DNA from: an uncultured Chitinophagales bacterium
GTDB lineage: Bacteria; Bacteroidota; Ignavibacteria; UBA10030; UBA6906
Reading direction: 5' to 3'
DNA: 64,000 nucleotides
Assembly: GCA_964444145.1 (NCBI GenBank)
Contig: CAYUFU010000005.1
Coordinates: 1,667 to 65,666 of the forward strand
Shown here: one piece after another, positions 6,461 to 40,127 of the stretch
Numbering within the stretch: position 1 is the first letter of the stretch
Layout of the letters: each line of letters begins with the position of its first letter
The notes under the pieces: generated by a model
Database searches by the model: none
What the model saw: the letters and a program-made list of their open reading frames with translations, nothing else
What the model was told of the DNA's origin: nothing
Program-made: the position numbers and the translations under genes

Positions 6461-6476
6461 TTTGTATTTTGGAGTT

Positions 6477-6532: not shown

Positions 6533-6538
6533 CATACT

Positions 6539-7141: not shown

Positions 7142-7157
7142 ATGCTTTCCTCACTTC

Positions 7158-7182: not shown

Positions 7183-7183
7183 C

Positions 7184-7627: not shown

Positions 7628-7665
7628 ATAGGTCTCCGGTGCAAATGCTCAAGGAATGAGTTGTT

Positions 7666-7690
7666 GAGTGTGTCCGCTTTCGACACACTC
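7666..7690. other. Intra-operon hairpin (9-bp stem)
   Basis: GAGTGTGTC-CGCTTTC-GACACACTC between the etfA stop and the lbpA start. No U-tract on either strand. Confidence 0.4.
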
Positions 7691-7701
7691 AGGGTCAAGT
7701 G

Positions 7702-9434: not shown

Positions 9435-9497
9435 GGACTCTTCTTCTTAGTGTACGTTTGAGATTTCACGGATATATTCTGGATGGATTGACGGAGT

Positions 9498-9516
9498 AGT
9501 GAGGCAATGCCTCACT
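9498..9516. other. Hairpin spanning the stop codon of the HdrD-like gene
   Basis: AGTGAGGC-AAT-GCCTCACT (8-bp stem). No U-tract. Confidence 0.35.
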
Positions 9517-11577: not shown

Positions 11578-11761
11578 AGTCGCAAAGCCGCTAAGTTTGT
11601 TTTGAGAAAGTTGAGGAAAGAAGATTTACCTTGTCGGTGGAAGCGCATGAACAGTTCGGGAATCCTCTTCCTCATGTTTTGTTTCTTTTTCGTTGCGTCT
11701 TGCCTGCCCGCCTCACTGTGCTATGATGGCAGGCGGGGCGCCTTTGCGTGAGAATCTCGCG

Positions 11762-12838: not shown

Positions 12839-14018
12839 CCTCCCACGTCAGGTATTGTTTTTCACCGCTCTTCAACCGTTCGGTCGCTGCTTCAAATTCC
12901 TTCCAAGCTTTCTCGTGATCGATTCCGACTTTCTCCAAGAACGCCGTGTTGTCCGTACTGTGCCAGTGGAGTTGCAGCACTTTGTAGGGATGTGCGCCCA
13001 TGGCAAGCGCCGCAATCTGCGAATCGGACATGACGGGAACACCGACATTGCGTCCGTGCGCCTTCGCGGCAAACTGACTTTGGTCGAGCGTTGTCACGCA
13101 ACCCGTGTCGTGCGTGACCGTGACATCGGGATTGGCTTCTTGTTTCATCACTTCGATTTTCCGCATCGTTGCAAACGAGCGGGAGAAATCGCGCGACACA
13201 AGAATGTGGCGGAACCCGAAGCCGCAGCAATCGAACCATGTGGAATAATCCTTCACGTCAATACCCAGGGCTTTCAGTGTTCCGGTAATAATTGCAGACC
13301 GCTGCGCGCCGTAAATTTCCGGATCATACACTGCATCTTCTGCAATGAGCTTATGATAGTGACATGCAGGATGGACCGTTGCGCGTATCATGCTCATGTC
13401 GCGCACCTGATGCGCTGCAATCCTGTCGCGCACGGCGTGCACCCATTCGCTGTAGTGAACAATCTCTTCAGGTATGACGAATTTCTTTCCAAGCCGCGCC
13501 AGAATGTCGCGCACTTGCTTGCGCAGCGCGGCGCTGTGCAAGAGCTGCTGCCGCGTTTCTTTGTAATGTCCGAAGCTCGTGCCGCAATGAATGATGGGGA
13601 AGTATCCCGTTTCAGCCGCCGCCGCAAAGTTGCGCATGGCAACCGCCGCTTGTGCCGCCGCATTCGAGGTTGCTGAGGCATAGTAATTCCACGCCGTGCA
13701 CGACGTCTGGTCGGTCGGGTCAATGTAATCGAGCCCAAGTTGGCGGTTTATCCAAAAGATAGAAGTCGAGTAGCCGGGGATGTGCCCGCACTGACCGCAG
13801 CTCTTGTGATGCCAGGTTTTCTGCACCGGAATCTTTTTCTTCCGCCCGTACTTTGTCTCGACTTCGATGTACGGCTCGGGCACGCGCTGAACCTCCCACT
13901 CACCCTCTTTTTCTAACTCGAAGAGGTGCTCATGAAAATCGTCGGTGGGTGCGTTCTTGACATCGCGAACAAACTCTCGGTCCTTCGCCTGCTTCACTAA
14001 CGCTTCCTGTGGTATCAT
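12825..14018 (-). CDS. shdrB1: sHdrB1-like CCG-domain subunit
   Basis: 397-aa ORF with CCG motif in FDCCGFGFRH and a further Cys-rich region. Confidence 0.8.
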   Translation of the reverse strand: MIPQEALVKQAKDREFVRDVKNAPTDDFHEHLFELEKEGEWEVQRVPEPYIEVETKYGRKKKIPVQKTWHHKSCGQCGHIPGYSTSIFWINRQLGLDYIDPTDQTSCTAWNYYASATSNAAAQAAVAMRNFAAAAETGYFPIIHCGTSFGHYKETRQQLLHSAALRKQVRDILARLGKKFVIPEEIVHYSEWVHAVRDRIAAHQVRDMSMIRATVHPACHYHKLIAEDAVYDPEIYGAQRSAIITGTLKALGIDVKDYSTWFDCCGFGFRHILVSRDFSRSFATMRKIEVMKQEANPDVTVTHDTGCVTTLDQSQFAAKAHGRNVGVPVMSDSQIAALAMGAHPYKVLQLHWHSTDNTAFLEKVGIDHEKAWKEFEAATERLKSGEKQYLTWEDVNA

Positions 14019-14072
14019 GTGGTTTGCTCCTGACTAGTTCTTTCCCAACCTTCTGTGTGCAGAGAGTTCTCC

Positions 14073-14777
14073 TCACTCAAAGCTGACAGCATAGCCCGCT
14101 TCCTCGAGTCGTTCTTCCATCACATCCTGTAAAATCATGAACAACCCCTCGTCCACTTCTTTGATCATATCCATCACGCCAGTCATGTGCCAAATCAAAT
14201 ACAGTTCAATGATGGTCTTCTCGTCCACCTGCCATCCTGTTTCTGTGGTGTGCAATGTTTCGGGCGGCAGTGCGCGGCGCCAAACATCGAGGTTATCCGA
14301 AATCGCTTTCACGTGGGGTCCCCAATCCGGGAACGCGTTCGGCTGCAGCATATCGGGGGAGACTTGCGTGCCGGTTGACATGATCTTGTAGACGACGCGC
14401 CCGTAGCCTTCGAGCGCCTCCTGTGCGGTTGCCAAGCCGTTCTTCACAGCGACTTCGCGCATGATCGTGATGATGCCGCCGGGCGAATTCTTGCGCGGGC
14501 AGCGGTCGCACGAAAAACATTGCGAGCAGTCCCAGATGCTGTCGTTCATCAATGTGTACACGAGGTCCACATCCTCGCGGGCAACGGCTTGCGCAATCTT
14601 GCGCGGACTGAAATCATAGAACCGCGCCGAGGGGCACGCGGCTACACAAATGCCGCATTCATAACAGCCATACAGATACTCCTCATAGCGCAGGTCTGCC
14701 TTGACCTGCTCGAAGAGCCGTTCTTTCTCTTCGTAGGCGACGCTCGCGTATTTTCTCCCTGTCAGGTCGAGAGCCAC
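14073..14777 (-). CDS. shdrC1: sHdrC1-like 2x[4Fe-4S] subunit
   Basis: 234-aa ORF (GTG start) with CYECGICVAACP and CSQCFSCDRCP. Confidence 0.8.
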   Translation of the reverse strand: MALDLTGRKYASVAYEEKERLFEQVKADLRYEEYLYGCYECGICVAACPSARFYDFSPRKIAQAVAREDVDLVYTLMNDSIWDCSQCFSCDRCPRKNSPGGIITIMREVAVKNGLATAQEALEGYGRVVYKIMSTGTQVSPDMLQPNAFPDWGPHVKAISDNLDVWRRALPPETLHTTETGWQVDEKTIIELYLIWHMTGVMDMIKEVDEGLFMILQDVMEERLEEAGYAVSFE

Positions 14778-14820
14778 GATGTATTTTCCTTTTCCTCTTC
14801 AACTAACCGAAGCGAAGTGT

Positions 14821-14927
14821 CTCCACCCATTTGAGGTGATGGATTATTGGATTGGTGGATTCCATTCATCCAACAATCCAGTTCAAGATCATTCGTCCCG
14901 CTTTGCGGGACGCAGGGTTCAGTGAGC
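14821..14927 (-). repeat. Intercistronic two-hairpin repeat, copy A
   Basis: Read on the minus strand: AACCCTGcgtCCCGCAAAGCGGGACGAA...GAATCCAcCAATCCAATAATCCAT, matching 37094..37200. GC hairpin at 14895..14911. AT-rich hairpin arms at 14848..14860 and 14868..14880. Confidence 0.7.
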
Positions 14928-15398
14928 CTACGCCTCAAATCCCTCCACGTGAGCGCATGCCTTGAGATTTTCTTTTTCAATCTTTTGTCGGTATGCTTCC
15001 ACTGCGGCGTCGCCTGTTGACATCGCCGCAAGATCTGCTTGAAGATTCGATGGCTGCATTTTTACAATCCACCCTGCGTTGTAGGGACTTTGATTGATGA
15101 GCTTCGCGTTCTGTCCGACCTTCGCATTGACCTCGATAATCTCTCCTGAGACGGGGGATTTTACGGGACCAACCCATTTGCCGCTTTCGACCGTCGCAAT
15201 TGGTTTTCCTTTTTCGCGCTTCGTGCCGACGCCTTTTGCTTTTGCGTGGAGCAATGGTCCGGCGAGATTTTGCGCGACATCGGTCATGCCTACGAGCACC
15301 GTTCCATCGTCATTGAGTTTTATCCAGGTGTGGTCCTCAACCGCGTAGTAGAGGTCTTTGAGAATGACACAACCACGGACTTCGTCTTTTTCGGGCAT
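14928..15398 (-). CDS. lbpA: GcvH-like lipoate-binding protein LbpA (copy 2)
   Basis: 156-aa ORF with lipoyl-lysine context VESGKWVGPVKSPVSGEI. GGAG SD upstream. Confidence 0.85.
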   Translation of the reverse strand: MPEKDEVRGCVILKDLYYAVEDHTWIKLNDDGTVLVGMTDVAQNLAGPLLHAKAKGVGTKREKGKPIATVESGKWVGPVKSPVSGEIIEVNAKVGQNAKLINQSPYNAGWIVKMQPSNLQADLAAMSTGDAAVEAYRQKIEKENLKACAHVEGFEA

Positions 15399-15500
15399 TG
15401 CTTTTTCTCCTGCTCACTGGTATTAGGCAGCGATTAGCACACCACCGCGTTCTGCACCGCTGTACAATTTGCACCCGCCATTGGTATCCCTTACACTACG

Positions 15501-15878
15501 TCAAAAGTACATCACATGATCCGATTCGAGCGCCAAATCTATGATGCTCGTTGCGCCCAGAATCTCAACGCCGGGAATCAAGTCCTCAGACTGCATGTTC
15601 CACAATGCCATGCTCTGCTGGCAGACGCGCAGCTTCACGCCGGACTCCATCGCCTGCTCAAGCATCGTTTTGAGTGTTACGTCGCTTGTCGGGTCGAGCT
15701 GGACTTTTTCCGCTGCGCCTTGCTTCAATTGATTGGTTCCATCCATCGTGAACCAAACCATCACCTCCATCTCCATTGCCGCCGCCGCCATCGCATAGAA
15801 AAGGGGAGAGTAGGTTCGGCGCGGCGTCTCGACCCCATGGGTTTGTATCACCAAAATTTTTTTCCCTTCGGCATCCAT
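15501..15878 (-). CDS. DsrE/DsrF-family sulfur-carrier-like protein (small)
   Basis: 125-aa ORF with DsrE-like layout (KILVIQTHG...) and a candidate active Cys in LRVCQQS. Confidence 0.7.
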   Translation of the reverse strand: MDAEGKKILVIQTHGVETPRRTYSPLFYAMAAAAMEMEVMVWFTMDGTNQLKQGAAEKVQLDPTSDVTLKTMLEQAMESGVKLRVCQQSMALWNMQSEDLIPGVEILGATSIIDLALESDHVMYF

Positions 15879-15977
15879 CGGGTTATTCTCTGTTGTCGTT
15901 TCCCATTCGATTACTGTTCTCTACCCTCTCGGCGTTCTTTGCAGTCAATTCATTTTCCTGTTTTCGGACAAGTTGCT

Positions 15978-16265
15978 CTAAGGATTGATTTCACACGGCT
16001 TGTTCGGGTCAGCGAGAACGATGAGATACTTCTTGTTCCATTCCCACCCGTCGTGTTCGGACATAAATTCATGCAGCTTGTCTTTTTCGGGATGATGCGT
16101 ATGAAGCTTGAGTGCAAGAGGAATGTTCCGTTCGTCCGTTGCGAGTATCTCCATCAAGAGCCATTCACCGGCGAGATCGTGATAAAGCTGGCTCAACTCA
16201 CTGAGCGCAAGTTCCTTCCCCGTCCAATCATCATTCGGCGCTGGAACCTGTAGCGTCCGTCTCAC
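15978..16265 (-). CDS. Hypothetical 95-aa protein, translationally coupled to the DsrE3-like gene
   Basis: The track ORF 15978..16331 overlaps the dsrE3-like gene by 70 nt. An in-frame GTG at 16265 overlaps the dsrE3-like stop as GTGA. No motif recognised. Confidence 0.5.
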   Translation of the reverse strand: MRRTLQVPAPNDDWTGKELALSELSQLYHDLAGEWLLMEILATDERNIPLALKLHTHHPEKDKLHEFMSEHDGWEWNKKYLIVLADPNKPCEINP

Positions 16266-16780
16266 ACAAACAAACTCACGTTCGCGTTTGCCGCGTATTC
16301 GAGGAACGTCGCCGCTCCGCCGATCTCGCACTCCGGAATAAAATCTTCTCTGGTGAAGCCGAATACATCCATCGTCATCTGGCAGCCAATCATGCGGACG
16401 TCCATTTCAACACATGCACTGCGCAAGTCCCCAACGGTCGCGACGCCTTTCTTTTTGAATGTCTGCTTCATCAGATTCGTGGCGACGTTTTCAAAGCCGG
16501 GTATGTTGCCCATTAACAAGTTTGGAATGTGCCAATTGATTTTCTGGAATCCCTCTGGTCCGAACGGCATCTTCATCGGCATCGCCGGGTTACCGACGGG
16601 CGTTACGGTTGCATGAAGGTCCTTCTTCAGCAACGGCAAGCCATAGAACGTGAAAAAGATTGCAACTTCCCAATCCATCGAGGCTGCCGCGCTCGCGAGA
16701 ATGAAGGGAGGGTACGCCCAATCCAGCGTTCCCTTGCTGGCAATAAGTGCCAGACGATGTTTTCCATTACTCTGTGCCAT
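16262..16780 (-). CDS. DsrE3-type (COG2210-like) sulfur-carrier protein
   Basis: 172-aa ORF with conserved Cys context MIGCQMTMDVFG and a GGAG SD. Confidence 0.75.
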   Translation of the reverse strand: MAQSNGKHRLALIASKGTLDWAYPPFILASAAASMDWEVAIFFTFYGLPLLKKDLHATVTPVGNPAMPMKMPFGPEGFQKINWHIPNLLMGNIPGFENVATNLMKQTFKKKGVATVGDLRSACVEMDVRMIGCQMTMDVFGFTREDFIPECEIGGAATFLEYAANANVSLFV

Positions 16781-23782: not shown

Positions 23783-24085
23783 TTATGAAGCAAGCAATCG
23801 CATCGCCACTGCGACAAGAGCAAGCGCGAGAAGCCGCACGATCCATAGCCCGCGAATGTGTTGCGCAACTGCCGCGCCGAATTGCGCGCCGACGATGACT
23901 GCCAAACCAATTGCGATGGCAAGTGTCGGCAGAACGTTCCCAAGAAGCACGTGACCGAGCGCTCCAACACCCGATGAAATCGTGAGAATGAAAAGAGACG
24001 TCGCTGTCGCGACGTGCGCCGGAAAACGAAGAAGACGCACCATCGCCTGCAACAAGCACCCCTGCGCGTTACGACCCCATTTCAT
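23783..24085 (-). pseudogene. TauE/SafE (TSUP) sulfite-exporter-like C-terminal half; remnant or half-size gene
   Basis: 100-aa ORF matching only the last ~4 TM helices of TSUP proteins (HVATATSLFILTISSGVGALGHVLLGNV...GAQFGAAVAQHI). The N-terminal half is absent. The start overlaps the SulP gene end by 17 nt. Confidence 0.45.
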
Positions 24086-25775
24086 AGTCCGTTCCTACCT
24101 TTGCATTGACGTGCTCCATTGCGCGCGCAAGCGCCTGACGAGTGGAGTTGAGTATCGTTGCATCTGAGAAAAAGAGGTTCTTGCGCCCGATAATCTGGTC
24201 GAAGCCTGAGCGACGGAAGATGGTTTCCACGTCGCCCGTTACGCCGGAAATCAGCAGCATCTTGTCTCGTTTGGTCATCTCCTCGGTGAGTTTCTGGATT
24301 GCGAGAAGGAATGTCGCGTCAATGGTTCCGGCCCGCTTGATGCGAAGGATGAGGACATGCAAATGTTCCTGACGCGCCACACGAGCGATTTTTTCCTCTA
24401 CAAGGTCCGCGGCACCGAAAAACACATTGCCCTCGATATGCAGAATGGCAATCTCCGGCGTCGCTCGCTCGAGTGAAGCATCCCGCTCGTGAAAGCCGGA
24501 TGCAGCGTCATACACCAACTCCTGCACCTGCGGCATTTGTGCTTTTCGAAGGAACAACACGAGCGACACACCGACGCCGATGTACAGAGCGTAGTCGAGA
24601 GGAAAGATGAATGCGCTTGCAAATGTAGCAACCATCGTGATGGCGTCCGAGCGCGTCGTCCGCATGACCATGTGCACGCTGCGCCAGTTTACCATGGTGA
24701 ATGCGACGACGATGAGAATGCTTGCAAGAGCTGCGATGGGAATAGAGCGCACCAGTGGATGAAGAACGAGCACGGCAAGCAGGAAGAACAACGCCGCCGA
24801 GGTATTGCCAAGCTTGGTTACGGCGCCAGTTTGGTAACTCAGCATGGTGCGCGTCAGCGAGCCTGAAACGGGCATACCACTGAAGAACGCAACGCTCATA
24901 TTCGCGAGACCTTGTCCAACTAATTCGCGATTGGCGTCCACGCGATCGCCCGAGAACGCGGCGACGGACTTCGCAATGGAAATAGACTCAGCTACGCCAA
25001 TGAGTGCAACTGCGAATGCACCGGGCAGGAGCGCACGCGCAAGCGATGCATCAACGAGAGGGAGGCTCAGCGGCGGAAACGCGCCGGGTAACTCGCCGAG
25101 TACCCGAACTCCACGCTCGTCCAATTTCCAGAATGCGGCGGCGCCCGCTGCAAGAAGCAATGTAATCAGATACGTCGGCACATAGGGAACGCCGCTCGGA
25201 GATTTTGGAATGATTCTGTTGAGCAAGAGCACCGCGGCGATCGTTCCCATGCTAACTGTAACGGCAAGCGGTTGCAGTTGATGCGCGCCGGAAATCAGGT
25301 GTGCGGCTGCTTCGAGAATCGAAGGCTGTGTGCTGCCTGGAATTCCTAAAAGGTTCGGCAGTTGATTGATGACGATGGATAATCCCGCGCCGGCAATGAA
25401 CCCCTCCAACACCGGACGCGAAATGAAATGTGTCAGCGTTCCCCAGCGCAGCAAACCGGCGGCGAGTCGAAGCGCACCGGCGAGAAACGTGAGCAACAAG
25501 ACGACGCCCATGAACTTGTCGTGATGAACGTACGACGCCAAAACGCTTGCGACGACGATCGCAGTCGCGTTCGTCGGTCCGGTTTGCAGATGCCGCGACG
25601 AGCCGAAGAACGAGCCGACCACCGTGCTGACCATGAACGCGTAGAGTCCGTATTGCGGCTGGATGCCCGCGAGCAGCGCGTAGGCAATCGCTTGCGGCAG
25701 CGCGAAGAGCGCCACCGTGAGTCCGGAGAATAAATCGCGGCGAAGAGTTTCGCGTTTATCGTGCTGAGATGTCAT
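24069..25775 (-). CDS. SulP-family anion (sulfate) permease with C-terminal STAS domain
   Basis: 568-aa ORF, polytopic, with the typical SulP N-terminus (DLFSGLTVALFALPQAIAYALLAG) and a STAS-like tail. Confidence 0.9.
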   Translation of the reverse strand: MTSQHDKRETLRRDLFSGLTVALFALPQAIAYALLAGIQPQYGLYAFMVSTVVGSFFGSSRHLQTGPTNATAIVVASVLASYVHHDKFMGVVLLLTFLAGALRLAAGLLRWGTLTHFISRPVLEGFIAGAGLSIVINQLPNLLGIPGSTQPSILEAAAHLISGAHQLQPLAVTVSMGTIAAVLLLNRIIPKSPSGVPYVPTYLITLLLAAGAAAFWKLDERGVRVLGELPGAFPPLSLPLVDASLARALLPGAFAVALIGVAESISIAKSVAAFSGDRVDANRELVGQGLANMSVAFFSGMPVSGSLTRTMLSYQTGAVTKLGNTSAALFFLLAVLVLHPLVRSIPIAALASILIVVAFTMVNWRSVHMVMRTTRSDAITMVATFASAFIFPLDYALYIGVGVSLVLFLRKAQMPQVQELVYDAASGFHERDASLERATPEIAILHIEGNVFFGAADLVEEKIARVARQEHLHVLILRIKRAGTIDATFLLAIQKLTEEMTKRDKMLLISGVTGDVETIFRRSGFDQIIGRKNLFFSDATILNSTRQALARAMEHVNAKVGTDYEMGS

Positions 25776-31334: not shown

Positions 31335-31350
31335 TGGCATTTGAATTGCC
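31335..31350 (+). promoter_or_regulatory. Candidate sigma54 promoter for the FadL-like operon
   Basis: TGGCAT-TTGAA-TTGC with exact GG-N10-GC spacing, 151 nt upstream of ATG 31501. Divergent from the NtrC-type two-component genes. Confidence 0.6.
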
Positions 31351-31500: not shown

Positions 31501-32769
31501 ATGAAACACGAAAGCCTTAAGATTTTTTTCGTGGCGCTTGGTGTAGCATTGTGCGCGAGCAACCTGTACGCGACCAACGGATATTTCTCACATGGGTTCG
31601 GACTGAAGCAGAAGGGAATAGCGGGCGCGGGTGTAGCGCTGAGTTTTGGACCGCTCGCGACAGCGACGAATCCCGGCAGCATAGCGTTCGTTCGAGCTGG
31701 CTACGACGTGAGCGTGTCGCTGTTCAATCCGAACCGACAATACACTGTAACCGGCGCACCTTCGATGCAGCCCGGCACCTTCGGCTTGGCACCCGGTACA
31801 ATCGAAAGCGGCTCGAAGATTTTCGTCATCCCCTCGCTCGGCGCAGTCTGGCAGGTTGATGAAAACAACTCAGTCGGTGTTGCGATTTTTGGGAACGGAG
31901 GCATGAACACTAACTATAACGCGCCCACCTTTGGCTTTACGCCGACAGGCGTTGATTTGGCGCAATTGTTTCTTACGCCCACGTACGCAATTAAGGTCGC
32001 GGAAAAGCACGGTTTTGGAATAACGCCTGTTCTCGCGTTTCAACGCTTCAAGGCAACAGGCTTGAAGGCGTTTGGTGGGTTTTCCAGCAGCGCAGCGAAC
32101 CTTTCCGATAATGCGTACAGCACCTCGCTCGGTTTCGGTGCACGCCTCGGCTATCTCGGACAGTTGATGGATTTCCTTTCGGTCGGTGCATCGATCCAAA
32201 CAAAAATCTCCATGGGGGCATTCGACAAATACGCGGGGCTCTTCGCGCAGCAGGGCGACTTCGACATTCCGACGAATTGGACTGTCGGCATCGCGCTCGG
32301 CTTCGAGCAAATGGGTCTCGCGTTCGACGTGCAACAAATCCTCTATAGCGGAATCAAATCAATCGCGAATCCCCTGCTGCCGAATCTTCAGCAATCTCCT
32401 CTCGGCGGTGATGCAGCCGCGGGTTTCGGTTGGAAAGACATGACGGTGTTCAAAGGCGGCGTGTATCTGCAAACCGAAGGCGGGTGGACGTGGCGCGCGG
32501 GCTACTCATACGGCAAGCAGCCGATTGAAGGCGGCACGAATCCGTTGACCTCGCAGGTTCTCTTCAACATCCTTGCCCCTGGCGTGGTTGAACAACACTT
32601 GACGATTGGCATTTCGAAAAAGGTGAGCGATGACCAGGAAATAGATGTTGCCGTGATGCGCGCGTTCCCTAAAAGCGTCATCGGAGTCAACCCGTTAGAT
32701 CCACTCGCCGGGCAAACGATTGAGCTGAAGATGAACCAGTGGGAGTTCAGCGTCGGGTTCGGATTCTGA
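31501..32769 (+). CDS. FadL/TodX-family outer-membrane transport protein
   Basis: 422-aa ORF with strong SD GAGGAGG, a signal peptide, N-terminal NGYFSHGFGLKQKGIAGAGVA, and a C-terminal beta-barrel ending ...FSVGFGF. Confidence 0.85.
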   Translation: MKHESLKIFFVALGVALCASNLYATNGYFSHGFGLKQKGIAGAGVALSFGPLATATNPGSIAFVRAGYDVSVSLFNPNRQYTVTGAPSMQPGTFGLAPGTIESGSKIFVIPSLGAVWQVDENNSVGVAIFGNGGMNTNYNAPTFGFTPTGVDLAQLFLTPTYAIKVAEKHGFGITPVLAFQRFKATGLKAFGGFSSSAANLSDNAYSTSLGFGARLGYLGQLMDFLSVGASIQTKISMGAFDKYAGLFAQQGDFDIPTNWTVGIALGFEQMGLAFDVQQILYSGIKSIANPLLPNLQQSPLGGDAAAGFGWKDMTVFKGGVYLQTEGGWTWRAGYSYGKQPIEGGTNPLTSQVLFNILAPGVVEQHLTIGISKKVSDDQEIDVAVMRAFPKSVIGVNPLDPLAGQTIELKMNQWEFSVGFGF

Positions 32770-32907
32770 TAACATCCTGAGTTCCGCAAGGCGGACGGAG
32801 AAGCGAGCAACGAGTACTCTCCGCGACGTTCACGAAGAACAACAATGCAAAATCTTTCGTTCAAGGAAATCAGAGAAAAGAATAATACTGGGTTGCGACC
32901 TTTGTGT

Positions 32908-33948
32908 ATGATGAGAAAACCAGCAATCTCACACCAAGCTACACGTCAACTGGCTTGGATGCTTTCTCTCTTGCTCCTCGCCCTTGGAGTTGCCACACAA
33001 GCAGCCGTCAGCGGGGAGAAGGAGTATGGAGTGTACCAGTACGTGATCGAGTCCGCTCACGGGACCTTCGAGGCAATCTCGTCTTCAATTGAGAACAGCG
33101 CACGCGCTGCAGGTTGGAGTGTCGTAACGAAAGTCAACGCCGGTGTGCCCGATGGATGCATGTACAAAGCGCGTGTCTTCGTACTTCACAAGTCTTCGTA
33201 TGCCGACAATGTCATGGCGGCGAATCGTACTACGGGACCGTTTGCAGTCGTTGACAGAGTCAATCTGTTCGAAGACGAGAATGGAATTCACGTTGCTGTC
33301 GTGAACCCGCATTCGATCAATCGCACGATTCTGATGGACGATACGAAATACGAAGCGATGACTCAGGCGCATCTGCAGGCGCTGCGCAGCATGATCGCGA
33401 GCGCAGTGAAGGGGAACCCGAGTGAGAGGCAATACGGACAGATGCGCCATGTCGGTTACATCAGCAAGACAATGGGCGTGATGGCGGGCGGCAGCTTCGA
33501 CAGCAAGCTCGTGGAGCTAGCGACCGTGAGCGGAGGCAATTGGAAAGAGGTTGCCGCAAAAGTCCGGGATGGCTTGAGTCAGCAAAGTAAGAAGTGGGGT
33601 ATGCATCGTGTGTACGAACTGGAATTGCCGCCGTTCGAAACCGTGTTATTTGGAACCACCGGCACGCCGATGGACGGCAAATCATTCGACATCGTAGGTG
33701 CGGGAGCCGATGAGTCACGCGAAAATCTGAAGTACCCCGGGTTGGCACACGCCGCCGCGTATCCGATTGAAATTGTTGTGGCGAAGGAAGGCGATGCAGT
33801 AACGGTGCGTACGGTGGAAGTGATGTTTCGCATGAAAATGTATTTCGAAGACGCGGGCAACTGGGCGTTCATGAAAAACGTGCGGATGCCCGGCTCAATC
33901 CAAGATGAGCTGACGGTGCAAGTCAAGTCGGGTTTGGGAACCAAGTAG
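32908..33948 (+). CDS. Secreted hypothetical protein, possible tandem DUF302-like domains
   Basis: The track ORF starts at 32845. I prefer the ATG at 32908 because the signal peptide (LAWMLSLLLLALGVATQAAVSG) follows directly. Two halves each resemble the DUF302 pattern by eye (low certainty). Confidence 0.6.
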   Translation: MMRKPAISHQATRQLAWMLSLLLLALGVATQAAVSGEKEYGVYQYVIESAHGTFEAISSSIENSARAAGWSVVTKVNAGVPDGCMYKARVFVLHKSSYADNVMAANRTTGPFAVVDRVNLFEDENGIHVAVVNPHSINRTILMDDTKYEAMTQAHLQALRSMIASAVKGNPSERQYGQMRHVGYISKTMGVMAGGSFDSKLVELATVSGGNWKEVAAKVRDGLSQQSKKWGMHRVYELELPPFETVLFGTTGTPMDGKSFDIVGAGADESRENLKYPGLAHAAAYPIEIVVAKEGDAVTVRTVEVMFRMKMYFEDAGNWAFMKNVRMPGSIQDELTVQVKSGLGTK

Positions 33949-33978
33949 GAGTTAACAGATCCAATATCCAAGCTCCGA

Positions 33979-34016
33979 GTTCCAAATCCGTTTGGGATTT
34001 GGAACTTGGGTTTTGA
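33979..34016 (+). terminator. Rho-independent terminator
   Basis: GTTCCAAATCC-GTTTG-GGATTTGGAAC (11-bp stem) followed by TTGGGTTTTGAG. Confidence 0.7.
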
Positions 34017-34065
34017 GATTTGGAGCTTACAACCGTGTTCTTTTCCATCAAGTAAGGAGGTATCC

Positions 34066-35196
34066 ATGAAGCAACTGATTCTCGTGTGTCTGTTGACCCT
34101 CACGGCTTGCGCTCTCGGGCTCTGGGGCTGCGACGTGCTTCCATCCACGTCGCAATTCGTGCCGGCGAATATGGAACTATGGGTCGCCGACCAGGGCTTG
34201 AACAAGATTCATGTGCTTGACTTGACTACGCTGCAGCAGAAACTCGAAATCACGATACCAGCGCCTGCAAGCAAGCCGCACATGGTTGTGTTCAGCGCGG
34301 ATTTCCGATTCGCGTACGTCGCATGCATCGGCGGGTCAGGGTACACGCTCGCGATCCGCGCCAGTGATTATTCCATCGTGGCAACGCTTGCGACAGGAGC
34401 GAGCACACACGCTGCGATTCCCAACTGGCACGGGAGACAAGTATGGGTGGCCGTCATCGGCGAGAGAAAGTTAAAGGAAATCGTTGTGGACCCGGACGCG
34501 CAAACATTCACCCTCGGCAGAACGTTGGACCTCACGCAAGCACCTTTGAACAACACGACCGAATTCCCGGACAACGCGCCTATCTGCCATATGTTCACCT
34601 ATGACACCCGCGCGGCATACGTCACGCTGCGTGGCGGCGGCTTGGCTGTCGTTGATGCAACGACGATGCAAGTTGTGAGGTCATATCCCGTTTCGCAAAT
34701 TGCACGGGCCGGCTGCGGCTTAGTGAATGGACCTCCCGGGAGCAACATCATGTTTGCCAACTCCGGCACGCTTACGAGCGGCAACTTCTACATGTTCGAA
34801 AGCCAAAACCACTCGCTCATGAATACGATGGGCACCGGCGCGGACGGCTTGGATGCGCACGGCGTGGCAGTGACGCCGGATGGGCGGCAGCTTTGGATGG
34901 TGAACCGTTTGAGTGACAACGTAAAGGTCTTCGACCTTCAACGTGGCAGCTTTGTCGAGACGATTGCCAACGTCGGCGACGCGCCGGACTTAATGGTGTT
35001 TTCTCCTGAAGGAGGCCGCGCATTTATCACGCTGCGTGGACCGAACCCTGCAACGGGCACGCACGATATTCGCGGCACAACGCCCGGAGTCGCAGTCATA
35101 GACGTGGCAACTCGTCGGCAGAGCACCATCATCCCGCTTGGGGCAGCGAATCCCTTGAGCGATCCACACGGCATTGCGCTACGACCGCTTCAGTGA
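34066..35196 (+). CDS. YVTN-type beta-propeller lipoprotein
   Basis: ATG 34066 is preceded by AAGGAGG. Lipobox-like MKQLILVCLLTLTACALGLWGC. Repeated beta-propeller blades (AYVTLRGGGLAVVD, DGRQLWMVNRLSDNVKVFD). Confidence 0.75.
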   Translation: MKQLILVCLLTLTACALGLWGCDVLPSTSQFVPANMELWVADQGLNKIHVLDLTTLQQKLEITIPAPASKPHMVVFSADFRFAYVACIGGSGYTLAIRASDYSIVATLATGASTHAAIPNWHGRQVWVAVIGERKLKEIVVDPDAQTFTLGRTLDLTQAPLNNTTEFPDNAPICHMFTYDTRAAYVTLRGGGLAVVDATTMQVVRSYPVSQIARAGCGLVNGPPGSNIMFANSGTLTSGNFYMFESQNHSLMNTMGTGADGLDAHGVAVTPDGRQLWMVNRLSDNVKVFDLQRGSFVETIANVGDAPDLMVFSPEGGRAFITLRGPNPATGTHDIRGTTPGVAVIDVATRRQSTIIPLGAANPLSDPHGIALRPLQ

Positions 35197-35437: not shown

Positions 35438-37093
35438 ATGAACTTCGGTTTCATCATAGATAATCGCAAGTGCATCGGCTGTCATGCCTGTACTGTCGCG
35501 TGTAAAGCGGAGCACGACGTCCCCATCGGCGTTAACCGCACGTGGGTGAAGTACCTTGAGAAGGGAGAATTCCCGAACACGCGGCGACTCTTCTCGGTGA
35601 TGCGATGCAATCACTGCGCCGACGCGCCCTGCGTTACGATTTGTCCCGTTACTGCGCTCTTTACGCGCAACGATGGCATCGTTGACTTCGACAATCGCCG
35701 CTGCATCGGCTGCAAAGCCTGCATGCAAGCCTGTCCGTACGATGCACTATATATTGACCCCGAAACGGAAACCGCCGCCAAATGTAACTACTGCGCGCAT
35801 CGCATAGATATTGGGCTTGAACCTGCGTGCGTGAATGTTTGTCCCGAACACGCCATCATCTCCGGCGACCTCGACGACCCGCTGTCCGAGATTGCGCACC
35901 TTGCCGCACGAGAGCAAACAAGCGCGCGCAAAGTGGAAAAGGGAACTCATCCCAAACTGTTCTACATCGAAGGCGATAGAGCGTCGCTCACGCCACTGGC
36001 TGCGGAGCAATCACACGCGTACATGTGGAGTTCACAGGCGACGGGCGTCGGGCACTTTGCCCATTTTGCCGAAGCGCGTATCAGGCAATCGGACCCGACG
36101 AGAATGAAACAAGAGTTGATGGGAAGAACGGGCGATGGGGAGAACGGGCGATGGGGCGATGAAAGAGTTTTGATTCCGACGAGCGGAGACCAACAGAAGG
36201 CGGAACAAAAAGCGCAGGCCGTGGTGCGCGAACAAGCGCGCCGCGTGTACGACGCGCCGAACAAAGGCGCCGTCTGGGGATGGGAGGTTTCCACATACGT
36301 GTGGACGAAGGCGATCGCTTGCGGCGCGTTTCTCGTTCCGTTCCTCGCTGCGCTGTCGGGAGTCGTCGTCCCGGAATCAACGCAATGGTTCGGCTCGACG
36401 CTCGCGCTTTTCTTCCTGCTATTGACGGGTGTGTTCCTTGTGAAAGATTTGGACCAGCCCAAGCGTTTCGCGTACGTGCTGCTGCGACCGCAATGGGGTT
36501 CGTGGCTTGTACGCGGCGGCTACATCATTGCAGCGTACGGAACGTTACTGTCGTTGTGGAGTGCGGCGAAATTTTTCGGATGGTTTGACCTCATATCGCT
36601 GGCGACGTGGAGCGGCGCGGTGTTCGCCATCCTCACTGCGGTGTACACCGCGTTTCTGTTCGCGCAGGCAAAAGGGCGCGACTTCTGGCAAAGCCCGGCG
36701 CTCTCGCTGCACATGCTCGTGCACGCGTTGATGGCAGGCGGTGCACTCTTCGCTCTGCTCGCGCCGTTCATGAGCGAAACGGGGGAATGGTCTCAATACC
36801 TTCGACTTGTATTGATTGGCAGTATTGCATTCAATCTTATAGTCATCGCACTAGAGCTGATTACGCCGCATCCAACGGAGGACGCCCGAGCAACCGTGAA
36901 GATGATTGTGGCGGGGCGCTTTCGCAATCACTTGTGGCTCGGCGTGCTGCTTGCCGGCAACGTTTTGCCATTAGTCATGCTGTGGTTGGGCGGTTGGTCT
37001 CTACTGCCCATCGCAGGGTTGCTGGTGCTCGCGGGCATCTACGTCACCGAGCACGTCTGGGTGCGGGCGCCGCAGTTGATTCCGTTGAGCTGA
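35438..37093 (+). CDS. Fused 4x[Fe-S] ferredoxin subunit + NrfD/PsrC-like membrane quinone-binding subunit
   Basis: 551-aa ORF. The N-terminal ~190 aa carry CIGCHACTVACK, CNHCADAPCVTICP, CIGCKACMQACP and CNYCAHR...CVNVCP. A ~95-aa linker follows, then ~8 hydrophobic helices starting AVWGWEVSTYVWTKAIACGAF. Confidence 0.85.
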   Translation: MNFGFIIDNRKCIGCHACTVACKAEHDVPIGVNRTWVKYLEKGEFPNTRRLFSVMRCNHCADAPCVTICPVTALFTRNDGIVDFDNRRCIGCKACMQACPYDALYIDPETETAAKCNYCAHRIDIGLEPACVNVCPEHAIISGDLDDPLSEIAHLAAREQTSARKVEKGTHPKLFYIEGDRASLTPLAAEQSHAYMWSSQATGVGHFAHFAEARIRQSDPTRMKQELMGRTGDGENGRWGDERVLIPTSGDQQKAEQKAQAVVREQARRVYDAPNKGAVWGWEVSTYVWTKAIACGAFLVPFLAALSGVVVPESTQWFGSTLALFFLLLTGVFLVKDLDQPKRFAYVLLRPQWGSWLVRGGYIIAAYGTLLSLWSAAKFFGWFDLISLATWSGAVFAILTAVYTAFLFAQAKGRDFWQSPALSLHMLVHALMAGGALFALLAPFMSETGEWSQYLRLVLIGSIAFNLIVIALELITPHPTEDARATVKMIVAGRFRNHLWLGVLLAGNVLPLVMLWLGGWSLLPIAGLLVLAGIYVTEHVWVRAPQLIPLS

Positions 37094-37200
37094 CACCAAA
37101 CCCTGATGCCCGCAAAGCGGGACGAAGGGTATGGAAATGGATAATTGGTTTGATGGATGATCGGAATTCAGGAATCCAACAATCCAATAATCCATTTATC
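37094..37200 (+). repeat. Intercistronic two-hairpin repeat, copy B
   Basis: AACCCTGatgCCCGCAAAGCGGGACGAA...GAATCCAaCAATCCAATAATCCAT. GC hairpin at 37109..37121. AT-rich arms at 37137..37156 and 37176..37195 (20 nt, 3 mismatches). Confidence 0.7.
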
Positions 37201-37232
37201 CATTTCACGTACGTTTTGTTCTGGGAAGGTCT

Positions 37233-40127
37233 ATGTCAACAATTCACACACCAGGTTTTATCGAAAAGATTGCGGAAACACTCCGCCTCATTCCAAATCT
37301 CCACGACGACCTCGGCGAACAGCTACCTCGTTTGACGGCGCCTTCCGTTCTCTCGAACTACCCGCCACCCGAGCAGTGGGACGATTGGGTGGAGTATGAG
37401 GCGAAGCGCTGGCCACGGCGCGTGGCGAAACACTACATGATCGTTCCGACTACCTGCTTCAATTGCGAGGCAGGCTGCGGTCTGTTGAGTTACATTGACA
37501 AAGAAACACTCCGGGTTCGTAAGTTCGAAGGAAACCCTTATCACCCCGGCAGCCGTGGACGCAACTGCGCGAAAGGTCCCGCCACGATAAATCAAATCAA
37601 CGACCCCGACCGCATTCTGTATCCGATGAAACGCAAAGGCAAACGCGGCGACGGCGAGTGGCAGCGCGTTTCTTGGGACGAGGTGTTGGGTGATATCGCC
37701 GACCGAATTCGCGCTGCGCTCCAGGAGAAGCGAAACAACGAAGTCGTCTATCATGTCGGGCGACCGGGCCATGAAGGTTACATGGATCGGATTCTGCAAT
37801 CATGGGGCGTGGACGGGCACAACAGTCACACGAACATCTGCTCGTCGGGAGCGCGCTTTGGCTACGCACTCTGGCAATTGTACGACCGACCTTCGCCGGA
37901 CCACGCCAAAGCGCATTTCATCTTGCTGATCAGTGCGCATCTTGAATCGGGACATTACTTCAACCCGCACGCGCAACGTATCATCGAGGGGATGATGAAT
38001 GGCGCGAAGCTTGCAGTGATGGACCCGCGGCTCTCCAACACTGCAAGCATGGCGGACTATTGGATGCCGACCTACCCGGGCAGCGAAGCTGCCGTCCTGC
38101 TTGCAATGGCAAAGGTTCTTCTTGACGAAGAATTGTACAATGAACCATACCTTCGCGACTGGGTGAACTGGCAGCAATTTCTCGAAAAAGATTTTCCCAC
38201 CGTTGCCATCACGTTCGAGAATTTTATCGCCGCGCTGAAGGAGGTGTATAAGGAATACACGCCGGAGTTTGCCGAAAAAGAGAGCGGAGTGAGTGCGAAC
38301 ATGATCGTCGAAGTAGCGCGGCAGATCGGCAAGGCGGGCACGCGTTTCTCCTCGCACAACTGGCGCTCGGCTGGTAGCGGCAACTTGGGCGGCTGGGCGG
38401 TTGCGCGCTGTCTGCATTTCCTCAACGTGCTCACAGGCAGTGTCGGAACCGTCGGCGGTACGTCGCCGAGTGCATGGAATAAATTCAAGCCCACCTTCTT
38501 CGACAAGCCGCCTGCTCAACAATTCTGGAACGAGCTGCATTTCCCCAACGAGTATCCCCTCGCGCATTACGAGATGAGTTTTCTGCTTCCGCATTTTTTG
38601 AAAGAGAATCGCGGCAAGCTTGCCGTCTATTTCACGCGCGTCTTCAATCCCGTCTGGACCTATCCGGATGGTTTCTCATGGATCGAAGCGCTCTCGGATG
38701 AAAACAAAATCGAATTGCACGCCGCGCTGACGCCGACATGGAACGAGACCGCATATTTTGCCGACTACGTGTTGCCGATGGGTCATGCCGGCGAGCGGCA
38801 CGACATCATCAGCTACGAGACGCATTCAGGCATGTGGATCGCGTTTCGGCAGCCTGTGCTGCGCGAAGCGAGACGCAAATTAGGGAAGCCCGTGCGGTTT
38901 ACCTACGAAGCGAATCCGGGCGAAGTGTGGGAGGAAGACGAATTCTGGATCGAGCTATCGTGGCACATTGACCCGGACGGCGCACTCGGCATCAAGCAGC
39001 ATTTCATTTCACCATACCGTCCCGGCGAAAAAATCACTATTGATGAATACTATCAATACATCTTCGAGCACACGCCGGGGTTGCCGGCGAAAGCTGCCGA
39101 GCACGGTTTGGCGCCGCTCGAATATATGCGGAAGTTTGGCGCGTTCGAAGTGGAATCCACTTCATACAACAAGCATCGCCGCTTGCTGTCTGCGTCGGAA
39201 CTTCAAGACTCACAGACCGATGCAAAGACCGGCGTCATCATCAGAAGCGGCAAGCGTATCGGTGTGATGGTGAATGGCGCGGCGTATGAAGGATTTCCCA
39301 CACCTTCGCGCAAGCAGGAATTCTATTCGCAGACGATGGTAGATTGGGGATGGAGCGAGTATCGGATTCCCGTGTACATCAAGAGCCATTTGCATCCTGA
39401 AAAAATGGATCGAAGCAAAGGAGAGTTTCCGCTTGTCCCAACGTTTCGGTTGCCGACATTGATTCACTCGCGTTCGGGTAACGCAAAATGGTTGTATGAA
39501 ATCTCCAATCGCAACCCCGTGTGGATGCACACCTCCGATGCCCAGCGGTTAGGACTGAAGACCGGCGATTTGATTCGCGTAACGACCGACATTGGCTACT
39601 TCGTCGATCGCGTCTGGGTGACGGAGGGAATGAAACCCGGCGTTGTCGCGTGCTCGCATCATCTCGGGCGCTGGCGCCGATCAAATGACGCGCCGGGAAA
39701 TCGCTGGGCAACAAGTTTGGTCTCGATCTCCGAAGAGGCGAAAGGGCAATGGCGCATGCGGCGCATTGATTCCATTCGCCCGTTCATGAGTGCTGATCCC
39801 GATACGGCGCGCATCTTTTGGAGCGACGGCGGCGTGCATCAGAACATTACCTTTCCTGTCCACCCCGATCCTGTAAGCGGTATGCACTGCTGGCATCAGA
39901 AGGTGCGCATTACCAAAGCCCTGCCCGACGACCGCTACGGAGACGTCTTCGCAGATACCGAGAAATCGTTTGCAATCTACAAGGAGTGGTTGCGTATGAC
40001 GAAGCCTGCGCCGGGACCCGGTGGGTTACGGAGACCGCTGTGGTTCAATCGGCCGCTGCGACCTGCCGACGAAGTGTTCTTGATACGCCCATCGGCAAAT
40101 GCTCCGGCTGACTCGCCTCGCCACTGA
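37233..40127 (+). CDS. Molybdopterin (bis-MGD) oxidoreductase catalytic subunit without Tat signal, Psr/Phs/Soe-family (SoeA-like candidate)
   Basis: 964-aa ORF with FS0 motif CFNCEAGCGLL...C and a candidate Mo-ligand Cys in HTNICSSGARFGY. The first 60 aa contain no RRxFLK twin-arginine motif. Confidence 0.85.
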   Translation: MSTIHTPGFIEKIAETLRLIPNLHDDLGEQLPRLTAPSVLSNYPPPEQWDDWVEYEAKRWPRRVAKHYMIVPTTCFNCEAGCGLLSYIDKETLRVRKFEGNPYHPGSRGRNCAKGPATINQINDPDRILYPMKRKGKRGDGEWQRVSWDEVLGDIADRIRAALQEKRNNEVVYHVGRPGHEGYMDRILQSWGVDGHNSHTNICSSGARFGYALWQLYDRPSPDHAKAHFILLISAHLESGHYFNPHAQRIIEGMMNGAKLAVMDPRLSNTASMADYWMPTYPGSEAAVLLAMAKVLLDEELYNEPYLRDWVNWQQFLEKDFPTVAITFENFIAALKEVYKEYTPEFAEKESGVSANMIVEVARQIGKAGTRFSSHNWRSAGSGNLGGWAVARCLHFLNVLTGSVGTVGGTSPSAWNKFKPTFFDKPPAQQFWNELHFPNEYPLAHYEMSFLLPHFLKENRGKLAVYFTRVFNPVWTYPDGFSWIEALSDENKIELHAALTPTWNETAYFADYVLPMGHAGERHDIISYETHSGMWIAFRQPVLREARRKLGKPVRFTYEANPGEVWEEDEFWIELSWHIDPDGALGIKQHFISPYRPGEKITIDEYYQYIFEHTPGLPAKAAEHGLAPLEYMRKFGAFEVESTSYNKHRRLLSASELQDSQTDAKTGVIIRSGKRIGVMVNGAAYEGFPTPSRKQEFYSQTMVDWGWSEYRIPVYIKSHLHPEKMDRSKGEFPLVPTFRLPTLIHSRSGNAKWLYEISNRNPVWMHTSDAQRLGLKTGDLIRVTTDIGYFVDRVWVTEGMKPGVVACSHHLGRWRRSNDAPGNRWATSLVSISEEAKGQWRMRRIDSIRPFMSADPDTARIFWSDGGVHQNITFPVHPDPVSGMHCWHQKVRITKALPDDRYGDVFADTEKSFAIYKEWLRMTKPAPGPGGLRRPLWFNRPLRPADEVFLIRPSANAPADSPRH

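Follow-up and report, generated by a model that had tools for sequence, protein, structure and literature searches.

On which side of the membrane, and on which substrate, would a molybdoenzyme act if its ferredoxin subunit were covalently joined to its membrane anchor and its catalytic subunit carried no export signal? The question is raised by two adjacent genes, here called BC and A, at positions 35,438 to 40,127 of a 64,000-nucleotide stretch of contig CAYUFU010000005.1 from an uncultured Chitinophagales bacterium (assembly GCA_964444145.1); the whole of that stretch is referred to below as the window. Our analysis favours, with a probability of roughly 0.68, a reading in which the two proteins form a two-polypeptide membrane-bound complex iron–sulfur molybdoenzyme with a cytoplasm-facing catalytic side that oxidises sulfite to sulfate. 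An earlier sequence-only reading of this DNA had proposed a SoeABC-like sulfite:quinone oxidoreductase, and its particular claims are taken up where the results bear on them. The features from which the argument starts are the following.

35438..37093, + strand: BC fusion gene, 551 amino acids (aa), four-cluster ferredoxin plus NrfD/PsrC-type membrane anchor (open reading frame, Pfam, homologues)
35438..35992, + strand: B domain (aa 1-185), four-cluster [4Fe-4S] ferredoxin containing 16 Cys, no signal peptide (Cys conservation, PsrB match)
35993..36289, + strand: linker of ~100 aa (aa 186-284), with a conserved start, a variable middle and a conserved basic segment (conservation profile)
36290..37093, + strand: C domain (aa 285-551), 8 transmembrane helices, NrfD/PsrC fold (hydropathy, structure model, Foldseek)
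37094..37232, + strand: BC-A spacer, 139 bp, A+T-rich, with AATCCA-like repeats (sequence)
37233..40127, + strand: A subunit gene, 964 aa, molybdenum- or tungsten-bis(pyranopterin guanine dinucleotide) (Mo/W-bisPGD) catalytic subunit without a twin-arginine translocation (Tat) signal (open reading frame, Pfam)
37233..37439, + strand: N-terminal extension of A (aa 1-69), with a conserved helix IEKIAExLxLIPN and a YPPPEQWDDW motif (120-homologue consensus)
37455..37568, + strand: FS0 [4Fe-4S] motif C75-x2-C78-x3-C82-x29-C112 of A (regular expression, Cys positions, within the Molybdop_Fe4S4 match)
37839..37841, + strand: codon of Cys203 of A (HTNICSSG), predicted Mo ligand (HMMER alignments)

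The BC protein has the composition that the sequence-only reading had described, a four-cluster ferredoxin joined through a linker to an NrfD/PsrC-like domain of about eight helices, and the gene order BC-A, with two genes and one short spacer, is likewise as stated there. Pfam places Fer4_11 at aa 52-144 and NrfD at aa 276-535. The first cluster motif stands right at the start of the B domain, whose cysteines fall into four CxxCxxCxxxC-type groups (C12/15/18/22, C57/60/65/69, C89/92/95/99 and C116/119/131/135), and all 16 are invariant across 48 sequences. A family profile searched against the PDB aligned aa 3-179 with the PsrB subunit of Thermus polysulfide reductase (2vpw_B; expectation value E = 2.6e-54), and the best NCBIfam match of this domain is TtrB, at 192.7 bits against a cut-off of 416. 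Eight hydrophobic helices span aa 285-540 in the hydropathy profile, with both termini of the C domain and its basic loops predicted on the ferredoxin (cytoplasmic) side. The same family profile matched B subunits in the PDB and not PsrC, and a PDB sequence search with the C domain alone returned chance matches only; the PsrC and ActC assignments came from fold comparison. An AlphaFold model of BC has block-mean predicted local distance difference test (pLDDT) values of 83-97 within the helices, and the modelled anchor superposes in Foldseek on PsrC (2vpw_C; template modelling (TM) score 0.73) and on the alternative complex III subunit ActC. Across the ferredoxin and the linker pLDDT stays below 50, so the model makes no statement on docking.

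The linker ranges from 70 to 115 aa across homologues, and its basic segment, RRVYDAPxKG..WGWEV, is conserved just before helix 1. Its start (aa 195-219; window positions 36020-36094) appears to be more than a spacer, as Y195, Q200, G203-V204-G205-H206, A208, A211, E212 and D219 vary little or not at all among 48 fused proteins, and the GVGH motif found there has no equivalent in the tails of unfused B proteins from Tat-bearing relatives.

Subunit A has the modules expected of a catalytic Mo/W-bisPGD protein, with Pfam matches to Molybdop_Fe4S4 (aa 70-123), Molybdopterin (aa 127-529) and Molydop_binding (aa 737-813), and both the FS0 cysteine motif and the ICSSG ligand context claimed for it at first sight are present, at C75/78/82/112 and C203. 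Among solved structures, ArrA (E = 8e-44) and PsrA (E = 4.8e-38) come nearest. In HMMER alignments C203 is matched with a cysteine of each (6cz7, SHSSVCAEAH, for ArrA; 2vpw, SVSLCTAP, for PsrA), which we take to be the Mo-ligating residue in those structures. Subunit A reaches none of the NCBIfam equivalog cut-offs and scores far below them (PhsA, 183 against 694; TtrA, 125.6 against 1750; ArrA, 143.6 against 1600; dmsA_ynfE, 191 against 778), and no SoeA model appears among the NCBIfam matches of the two proteins.

The orientation argument depends on the fusion being genuine, and its recurrence leaves little room for doubt. A fused BC gene lies directly upstream of A and co-oriented with it in 79 of the 92 loci that carry an A homologue, including the finished replicons of Thermomicrobium roseum, Rhodococcus jostii RHA1 and Natrinema, so that a sequencing frameshift, which the sequence-only reading had itself named as a possible undoing, is excluded. 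Seven of the 13 remaining loci are cut by a contig end, and the other six have no BC within 6 kb upstream of A; in the four of these that were inspected, other genes stand there. Database proteins matching BC and A exceed 8000 for each. The best 120 BC homologues are nearly all full-length fusions of 531-580 aa with 62-86% identity, and the top 120 A homologues are 74-100% identical and come from several phyla, the nearest named ones belonging to metagenome-assembled genomes (MAGs) of candidate division KSB1 and Calditrichaeota. The fused clade is unusually conserved, with identities of ~70-80% across Bacteroidota, Acidobacteriota, Calditrichota/KSB1, Planctomycetota and Chlorobiota, and 55-62% in the fused-clade members of Thermomicrobium, Rhodococcus and haloarchaea; the genome scan for relatives considered the 80 closest, at 68-81% identity.

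More distant relatives were sought among 1.84 billion 50%-identity representatives (numbered P; loci are numbered L), where few full-length proteins exceed 40% identity, and the 150 best representatives include no Tat-less ~950-aa protein besides those of the fused-type clusters P0241 and P0244. A tblastn search of plasmids returned only fused-type, Ttr-like or PhsA loci. In a neighbour-joining distance tree of 26 sequences with 100 bootstraps, a superclade supported by 100/100 replicates and standing apart from Psr/Phs/Ttr-like representatives unites a Tat-less fused core (87/100), the divergent Tat-less fused P0244, and the Tat-bearing P0246, P0263 and P0286. All superclade members have a YPPxExW motif, which follows the signal peptide in the Tat-bearing ones. 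P0244, 42% identical and Tat-less, was considered as a classical SoeA and rejected; its locus is a fused BC-A with persulfide dioxygenase and YeeE genes, and it has no HTNICS cysteine. Cys203 is kept in the fused core clade, P0246 and P0286, and is absent from P0244 (L011) and P0263 (L095), which perhaps use another ligand or are non-catalytic. Non-catalytic Mo-like proteins are known in QrcB and ActB.

Two lines of sequence evidence address the side of the membrane on which A would work. Psr, Phs and Ttr enzymes are periplasmic, and their A and B subunits are exported via Tat. The 74 residues of A that precede FS0 contain neither an RR motif nor a hydrophobic core, the maximum 15-residue Kyte-Doolittle value being 0.55 as against 1.6-1.9 in Tat-bearing relatives, and none of the 120 A homologues has a Tat-like N-terminus, in keeping with the absence of a twin-arginine signal noted at the outset. 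The controls P0246, P0263, P0286 and a more distant Azoarcus plasmid enzyme do carry a Tat signal, and in Tat-bearing relatives RRxFLK and a hydrophobic region precede the same YPPFExW motif. In-frame stops lie just upstream of both ATGs; both reading frames thus begin at the first possible start after a stop, and no hidden signal peptide could be recovered by moving either start, a possibility that the sequence-only reading had raised. The second line is the distribution of lysine and arginine in the anchor, which averages 10.25 residues in the ferredoxin-side loops against 1.41 on the far side and leans in the same direction in 118 of 118 aligned BC proteins. By the positive-inside rule this bias would place the ferredoxin domain, and hence the A subunit docking on it, in the cytoplasm. 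The Azoarcus enzyme, which clearly has a Tat signal and whose B, C and A are encoded separately, has the opposite anchor bias (2 against 7); that of P0246 leans weakly to the reversed side (4 against 6), and P0263 shows no clear bias (8 against 7). The Sulfurovum anchor was discarded as a topology control on account of an unreliable helix prediction (9 segments).

At P0246 and P0263 the genes likewise run B, C, A, but B (212 aa) and C (287-290 aa) are separate, and the P0246 locus also contains a NarJ/TorD-type chaperone gene. In every case examined, the fusion goes with absence of a Tat signal and separate B and C genes go with its presence. The sequence-only reading had held that a B-C fusion is only compatible with a non-exported B domain; as a correlation this stands without exception, and as a principle it is too strong. 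Taken together, the lack of Tat signals, the uniform charge bias and the unfused state of the Tat-bearing sisters make it well supported, at the level of sequence, that the predicted catalytic side of BC-A faces the cytoplasm, as had been proposed.

The N-terminal extension of A deserves mention beside this result. Its consensus is ~90% conserved among the 120 homologues, and the IEKIAExLxLIPN helix (aa 1-26; 37233-37310) occupies the place that the signal peptide has in Tat-bearing relatives. The helix may be what is left of a peptide on which a maturation chaperone docks, as in NarG, or it may contact the BC linker. The database gene call for an identical A protein begins 33 residues later and so loses this helix. 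The BC-A spacer, for its part, is a recurrent insertion point elsewhere (L002, L005, L086, L056, L060, L080 and L014): PDDEXK_3 genes occupy it in L002, L005 and L086, a sulfide:quinone oxidoreductase (SQR)-like gene in L060, an SQR-like gene together with a methyltransferase gene in L056 and L080, and a further kind of insert consists of an unknown gene and a phosphoesterase gene. An AbiEii toxin gene in L013 and a restriction-modification pair in L001 stand upstream of A, with no BC within 6 kb.

What such a cytoplasm-facing enzyme would act upon is a separate matter, and our substrate assignment is drawn solely from gene neighbourhood, in the window and in related genomes. Two features of the window are relevant here, the first being a cluster of the sulfur-oxidising heterodisulfide reductase-like (sHdr) type.

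963..16780, - strand: sHdr/LbpA-type sulfur-oxidation cluster (Pfam scans)
24069..25775, - strand: SulP/STAS anion transporter, candidate sulfate (or sulfite) carrier (Pfam Sulfate_transp and STAS)

The sHdr system yields sulfite in the cytoplasm. The cluster in the window, which encodes two lipoate-protein ligases, two radical-SAM proteins, EtfAB, HdrC/B-like CCG proteins, an HdrA-like flavoprotein, a GcvH-like LbpA and a DsrE-like protein, is the presumed source of cytoplasmic sulfite in this organism. With its EtfA/EtfB genes (7702-9434) and a long CCG/ferredoxin protein it is closer to 'hdr cluster II' than to the simpler set; the Sulfobacillus 'hdr cluster II' contains electron-transfer flavoproteins (PMC4378227).

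Across the 92 loci BC-A is the conserved unit, and its neighbours vary with sulfur genes recurring among them. A fusion of a metallo-beta-lactamase (MBL)-fold persulfide dioxygenase with rhodanese is co-oriented with BC-A in 31 loci, SulP is adjacent and co-oriented in 31, and YeeE/Sulf_transp gene pairs lie nearby in 13. An SQR-like flavoprotein is encoded between BC and A in three Bacteroidota loci, in two of them with the methyltransferase. Five Chlorobi loci read BC-A-TauE/SafE-DsrE, with TusA as well in four, and on the Rhodococcus RHA1 plasmid pRHL3 BC-A is surrounded by genes for three MBL-fold proteins, ArsR-type regulators, DsrE and TusA. A CsoR-family regulator gene lies upstream of BC-A in Thermomicrobium, and in one locus BC-A is adjoined by a histidinol-dehydrogenase, short-chain dehydrogenase/reductase, alcohol dehydrogenase and tripartite ATP-independent periplasmic transporter cluster that resembles dihydroxypropanesulfonate (DHPS) catabolism. 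These neighbours all make or carry cytoplasmic sulfite, persulfide, thiosulfate or sulfate; the simplest reading of BC-A is a sulfite:quinone oxidoreductase, and oxidation of sulfite to sulfate would be its most likely reaction. A role in sulfite oxidation, which the earlier proposal had tied to sHdr-derived sulfite, is supported by context, through the sHdr/LbpA, RuBisCO, phosphoribulokinase and SulP genes of the window as well as through the related loci. The companion proposal, that SulP would export the sulfate, gains from the 31 loci in which SulP adjoins BC-A and loses from the window itself, where the SulP gene lies ~9.7 kb away on the opposite strand.

Two observations on the surroundings of BC-A in other genomes may be added. 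A gene for an Mrp/NBP35-type Fe-S carrier ATPase overlaps the 3' end of A in Rhodococcus RHA1 (L008 10799-11968) and Natrinema (L009 11032-12192), where it may be a dedicated maturation factor of those lineages; no such gene is present in the window. In the Myxococcota locus L011 a sigma-54 activator adjoins the dioxygenase-YeeE-BC-A cluster.

The mechanism that we propose would run as follows. Subunit A, with its Mo-bisPGD cofactor, Cys203 ligand and FS0 cluster, would convert cytoplasmic sulfite to sulfate and pass the electrons to the four [4Fe-4S] clusters in the ferredoxin domain of BC; the resulting quinol would then be used by the Rieske/cytochrome b complex and the haem-copper oxidase, whose genes lie farther downstream in the window. 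Sulfite would be supplied by the sHdr/LbpA system in this organism, and by the persulfide dioxygenase-rhodanese or sulfonate breakdown in many other carriers, and sulfate would leave through a SulP- or TauE-type carrier. We infer both the position of the quinone site and the identity of the sulfate exporter, as we do the substrate and the catalytic direction. A cofactor-loaded N-terminal ferredoxin joined to the anchor would fix the N-terminus of helix 1 inside, and the NrfD module would thereby lie upside down relative to that of the Tat-exported Psr/Phs/Ttr enzymes. Because B and C were already adjacent in that order, a single fusion would have sufficed to tether the cofactor-bearing domain to helix 1 and so could have flipped the anchor.

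Several points weigh against this reading. We know of no fused-type enzyme that has been assayed biochemically, the BC-A gene order is ttrBCA-like and unlike soeABC, and among curated families the B domain scores best with TtrB. Many loci contain the module by itself, without sulfur genes in the vicinity, and in the window neither the SulP nor the sHdr genes adjoin BC-A, the sulfur genes lying 10-35 kb away and outside its operon. The AlphaFold model gives no docking of the ferredoxin domain on the anchor in its low-confidence part. Finally, the original description of the Aquifex enzyme from the related lineage was as a sulfur/tetrathionate reductase (PMC4378227, PMC8076601), so that homology fixes neither direction nor substrate.

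Among the alternatives, the one that survives best retains the same cytoplasm-facing enzyme and its quinone acceptor and changes the substrate to thiosulfate, or thiosulfate together with sulfite, the thiosulfate being imported by YeeE-like transporters or formed from sulfite and persulfide; we regard this as unlikely. It would account for the YeeE/Sulf_transp pairs and the rhodanese-fused dioxygenases that are co-oriented with BC-A (13 and 31 of the 92 loci), and deletion of soeABC in Ruegeria pomeroyi impaired thiosulfate oxidation more strongly than sulfite oxidation (bioRxiv 10.1101/2022.12.07.519552), which keeps thiosulfate live as an alternative substrate. Those mutant data concern the three-subunit proteobacterial enzyme, however, and the rhodanese and dioxygenase domains could themselves yield sulfite and leave sulfite as the substrate of the Mo site; we found no biochemical example of a site of this type oxidising thiosulfate directly.

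Lower still in probability, and in our view improbable, is a cytoplasm-facing reductase of sulfur, polysulfide, persulfide or tetrathionate, a 'bacterial Sre' that would consume quinol rather than produce it. The first description of the related Aquifex complex as a sulfur/polysulfide/tetrathionate reductase (PMC4378227) speaks for this direction, as do the closest solved relatives, ArrA and PsrA, which are reductases, and the TtrB-like character of the B domain. Yet the carriers include aerobes (Rhodococcus, Thermomicrobium, haloarchaea) and many Bacteroidota, the linkage to an O2-dependent persulfide dioxygenase, an SQR-like gene and anion exporters points to oxidation, and sHdr genes for sulfur oxidation as well as RuBisCO are present in the organism of the window. 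An ordinary periplasmic Psr/Phs/Ttr-type reductase, in which a Tat signal had been missed or the B-C fusion were an assembly frameshift, is hardly credible and is already contradicted by the sequence data, for although NCBIfam and PDB matches are to PhsA, DmsA, ArrA and PsrA and Tat-bearing relatives share the superclade, in-frame stops precede both starts, none of the 120 homologues is Tat-like, the fusion occurs in independent assemblies of many phyla as well as in replicons sequenced to completion, the charge bias runs opposite to that of a Tat-type anchor, and the curated family scores are far below cut-off.

Beyond the assignment as a cytoplasmic sulfite:quinone oxidoreductase, we tentatively raise a wider view that is possible but that we would not rely on, namely that the fused BC-A enzymes perhaps form a separate, very large clade of their own, not simple orthologues of proteobacterial SoeABC, that arose from a Tat-exported B-C-A enzyme and became a main cytoplasmic sink for sulfite or thiosulfate. 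The ancestor would have been an exported enzyme encoded in the order B-C-A, in which one joining of B to C would have obliged the anchor to insert upside down, with the conserved N-terminal helix of A taking the place of the Tat signal. If so, heterotrophs that detoxify sulfide would rely chiefly on these enzymes to remove sulfite and/or thiosulfate from the cytoplasm, and the enzymes would constitute a natural experiment indicating that an NrfD-type quinone module works in either orientation.

The immediate surroundings of BC-A in the window comprise the following further features.

27973-30856, - strand: histidine kinase (HAMP-PAS) and sigma-54-dependent response regulator pair, divergent from the FadL gene (Pfam)
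31335..31349, + strand: sigma-54-like promoter element TGGCATTTGAATTGC, ~150 bp upstream of the FadL gene (pattern search, one mismatch)
31501..35196, + strand: three envelope-protein genes upstream of BC and co-oriented with it, their link to BC-A uncertain (Pfam, translations)
31501-32769, + strand: FadL/TodX-type outer-membrane channel (Pfam)
32845-33948, + strand: unknown 367-aa protein with a hydrophobic N-terminal segment (translation)
34006-35196, + strand: beta-propeller lipoprotein-like protein (Pfam, translation)

A FadL homologue is also found upstream of BC-A in Chlorobium sp. N1 (L075 2401-3786) and near it in L014 and L091, and a gene for the 367-aa protein is again the immediate upstream neighbour of BC in L091, a Neomarinimicrobiota MAG; FadL-type genes near BC-A may provide an envelope route for hydrophobic sulfur species, or their presence may be coincidence. 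The count of the sigma-54 pattern across the window is below chance expectation, and TGGCATTTGAATTGC is suggestive by its position only. The pattern search of the window gave no sigma-54 site directly upstream of BC and weaker sigma-54-like sites upstream of the sHdr and the phosphoribulokinase and RuBisCO genes, and sigma-70 and terminator scans of the window remained at chance level. The genes for the large subunit (487 aa) of ribulose-1,5-bisphosphate carboxylase/oxygenase (RuBisCO) and for phosphoribulokinase (19405-21937 and 22246-23706, - strand) adjoin a sigma-54 activator without a receiver domain, and no RuBisCO small-subunit gene was noticed among the open reading frames scanned in the window. 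An FG-GAP repeat protein with a Por_Secre_tail sorting domain for type IX secretion is encoded at 25799-27916 (- strand); the domain suggests a member of the FCB group, in agreement with the KSB1 and Calditrichaeota origin of the nearest named homologues. Downstream, BC-A is directly followed by rimP-nusA-infB, with no TauE, DsrE or TusA gene there, and further on by genes for a Rieske protein, cytochrome b, cytochromes c and a haem-copper oxidase (COX1). A BshC homologue (51308-53008, - strand) suggests that bacillithiol, and not glutathione, could be the thiol carrier for persulfide chemistry here.

The fused architecture is not new; it is known in outline, so that our finding is a rediscovery of modest novelty, and its value lies in the strength of the orientation argument and in the breadth and conservation of the family. 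For this organism, BC-A would supply the missing last step of a route from sHdr through sulfite to sulfate, and would deliver electrons to quinone at a point before the cytochrome b/Rieske complex and the oxidase. In a wider frame, the fused type offers sequence-level evidence for an inverted NrfD/PsrC anchor, which elsewhere has only been expected for SoeC; this evidence comes from the ferredoxin placed covalently at the N-terminus, from the one-sided charge bias throughout, and from the unfused state of the nearest Tat-bearing relatives. The family is very large, is annotated merely as 'molybdopterin-dependent oxidoreductase' and lies in recurrent sulfur operons, and a single biochemical characterisation would therefore annotate thousands of genomes. 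Among its culturable carriers are Rhodococcus jostii RHA1 (pRHL3 RHA1_RS43840 and RS43835), Thermomicrobium roseum (TRD_RS12035 and RS12030), Flavilitoribacter nigricans DSM 23189, Lutibacter aestuarii and Chlorobium.

How the window enzyme relates to known systems can be judged module by module. With the Psr/Phs/Ttr enzymes it shares the same three modules and folds, as seen in its matches to all three subunits of the Thermus thermophilus enzyme (2VPW; PsrB, E = 2.6e-54; PsrC, TM 0.73; PsrA, E = 4.8e-38), and the gene order B, C, A is common to the window, the Azoarcus cluster, which is Ttr-like by gene order and neighbouring genes only, and the sisters P0246 and P0263. It differs in that those enzymes have a Tat signal on A, separate B and C subunits and often a TorD/NarJ-type chaperone gene, whereas the window has no Tat signal and a fusion; the charge bias is opposite in the one clearly scorable anchor, that of Azoarcus, and the window proteins are only ~28-33% identical to Psr/Phs/Ttr-type proteins and fall below every curated cut-off. 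Alternative complex III provides another case in which modules of the Mo-subunit/ferredoxin/NrfD set are fused into one polypeptide, ActB (PMC6303296, PMC10100899), and ActC is among the best structural matches of the window C domain. ActB, however, fuses a cofactor-less Mo-like domain to the ferredoxin and is Tat-exported and periplasm-facing, whereas in the window the ferredoxin is fused to the anchor, ligand and FS0 are retained in the Mo subunit, and the predicted orientation of the complex is towards the cytoplasm.

A further comparison is with SoeABC, the enzyme of Allochromatium vinosum (SoeA, Alvin_2491), Aquifex aeolicus (SoeA, the partner of aq_1231) and Ruegeria pomeroyi. Its Mo-bisPGD subunit with FS0 and Cys ligand, four-cluster ferredoxin and haem-less 8-helix NrfD anchor are all present in the window; like the window proteins it has no signal peptides and is predicted to face the cytoplasm with an inverted NrfD subunit (PMC8076601), and it would have the same partners, namely cytoplasmic sulfite from Dsr, sHdr, persulfide dioxygenase or sulfonates. 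SoeABC consists of three separate subunits named in the order A-B-C, whereas the window has two genes in the order BC-A, with B and C in one 551-aa polypeptide. In R. pomeroyi, soeABC has been placed in an SQR-PDO-SOE pathway, and its deletion impairs the oxidation of sulfite as well as that of thiosulfate (bioRxiv 10.1101/2022.12.07.519552). A passage in a review citing Dahl et al. 2013 gives soeABC genes as universal in purple and green sulfur bacteria (PMC8232776), and a phylogeny assigns proteins of Ca. Electryoneota (=AABM5-125-24) to SoeA (PMC9324843). A 2021 survey of NrfD proteins found SoeC only in Proteobacteria, a few Firmicutes and Aquificae and treated its inverted orientation as an expectation, so that the fused family seems to have been overlooked or not counted (PMC8076601).

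The closest counterpart is polysulfide reductase-like complex 3 (PSRLC3) of green sulfur bacteria. In early reviews by Frigaard and co-workers it is reportedly without a signal peptide and has PsrB and PsrC fused. PSRLC3 is encoded by two genes (PMC5473276) and has been described as an alternative sulfite-oxidising system (PMC6338057); like the window it pairs a PsrA-like subunit with a second gene that has the B and C functions. The homologue in Chlorobium sp. N1 has the features of the window, with an A subunit ~70% identical, a fused 521-aa BC (Fer4_11, NrfD), the order BC-A and a FadL-type gene upstream. The five Chlorobi loci as a group are 70-72% identical to the window in A (955 aa) and 52-55% in BC (521 aa), and their proteins fall into one clade with the window A in the neighbour-joining tree (87/100 bootstrap). 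An identification of CT0494-0496 as PSRLC3 was dropped, as papers place CT0494 in another complex; the Chlorobium locus probably corresponds to the PSRLC3 of the literature by its two-gene architecture, and not by locus tags. The window host differs in not being a phototroph and in having sHdr, not Dsr, as its presumed sulfite source, and where TauE, DsrE and TusA follow the Chlorobi BC-A, the window has rimP-nusA-infB. We accordingly file the window genes as a PSRLC3/Soe-type member, the likeness to Soe being one of architecture and gene context.

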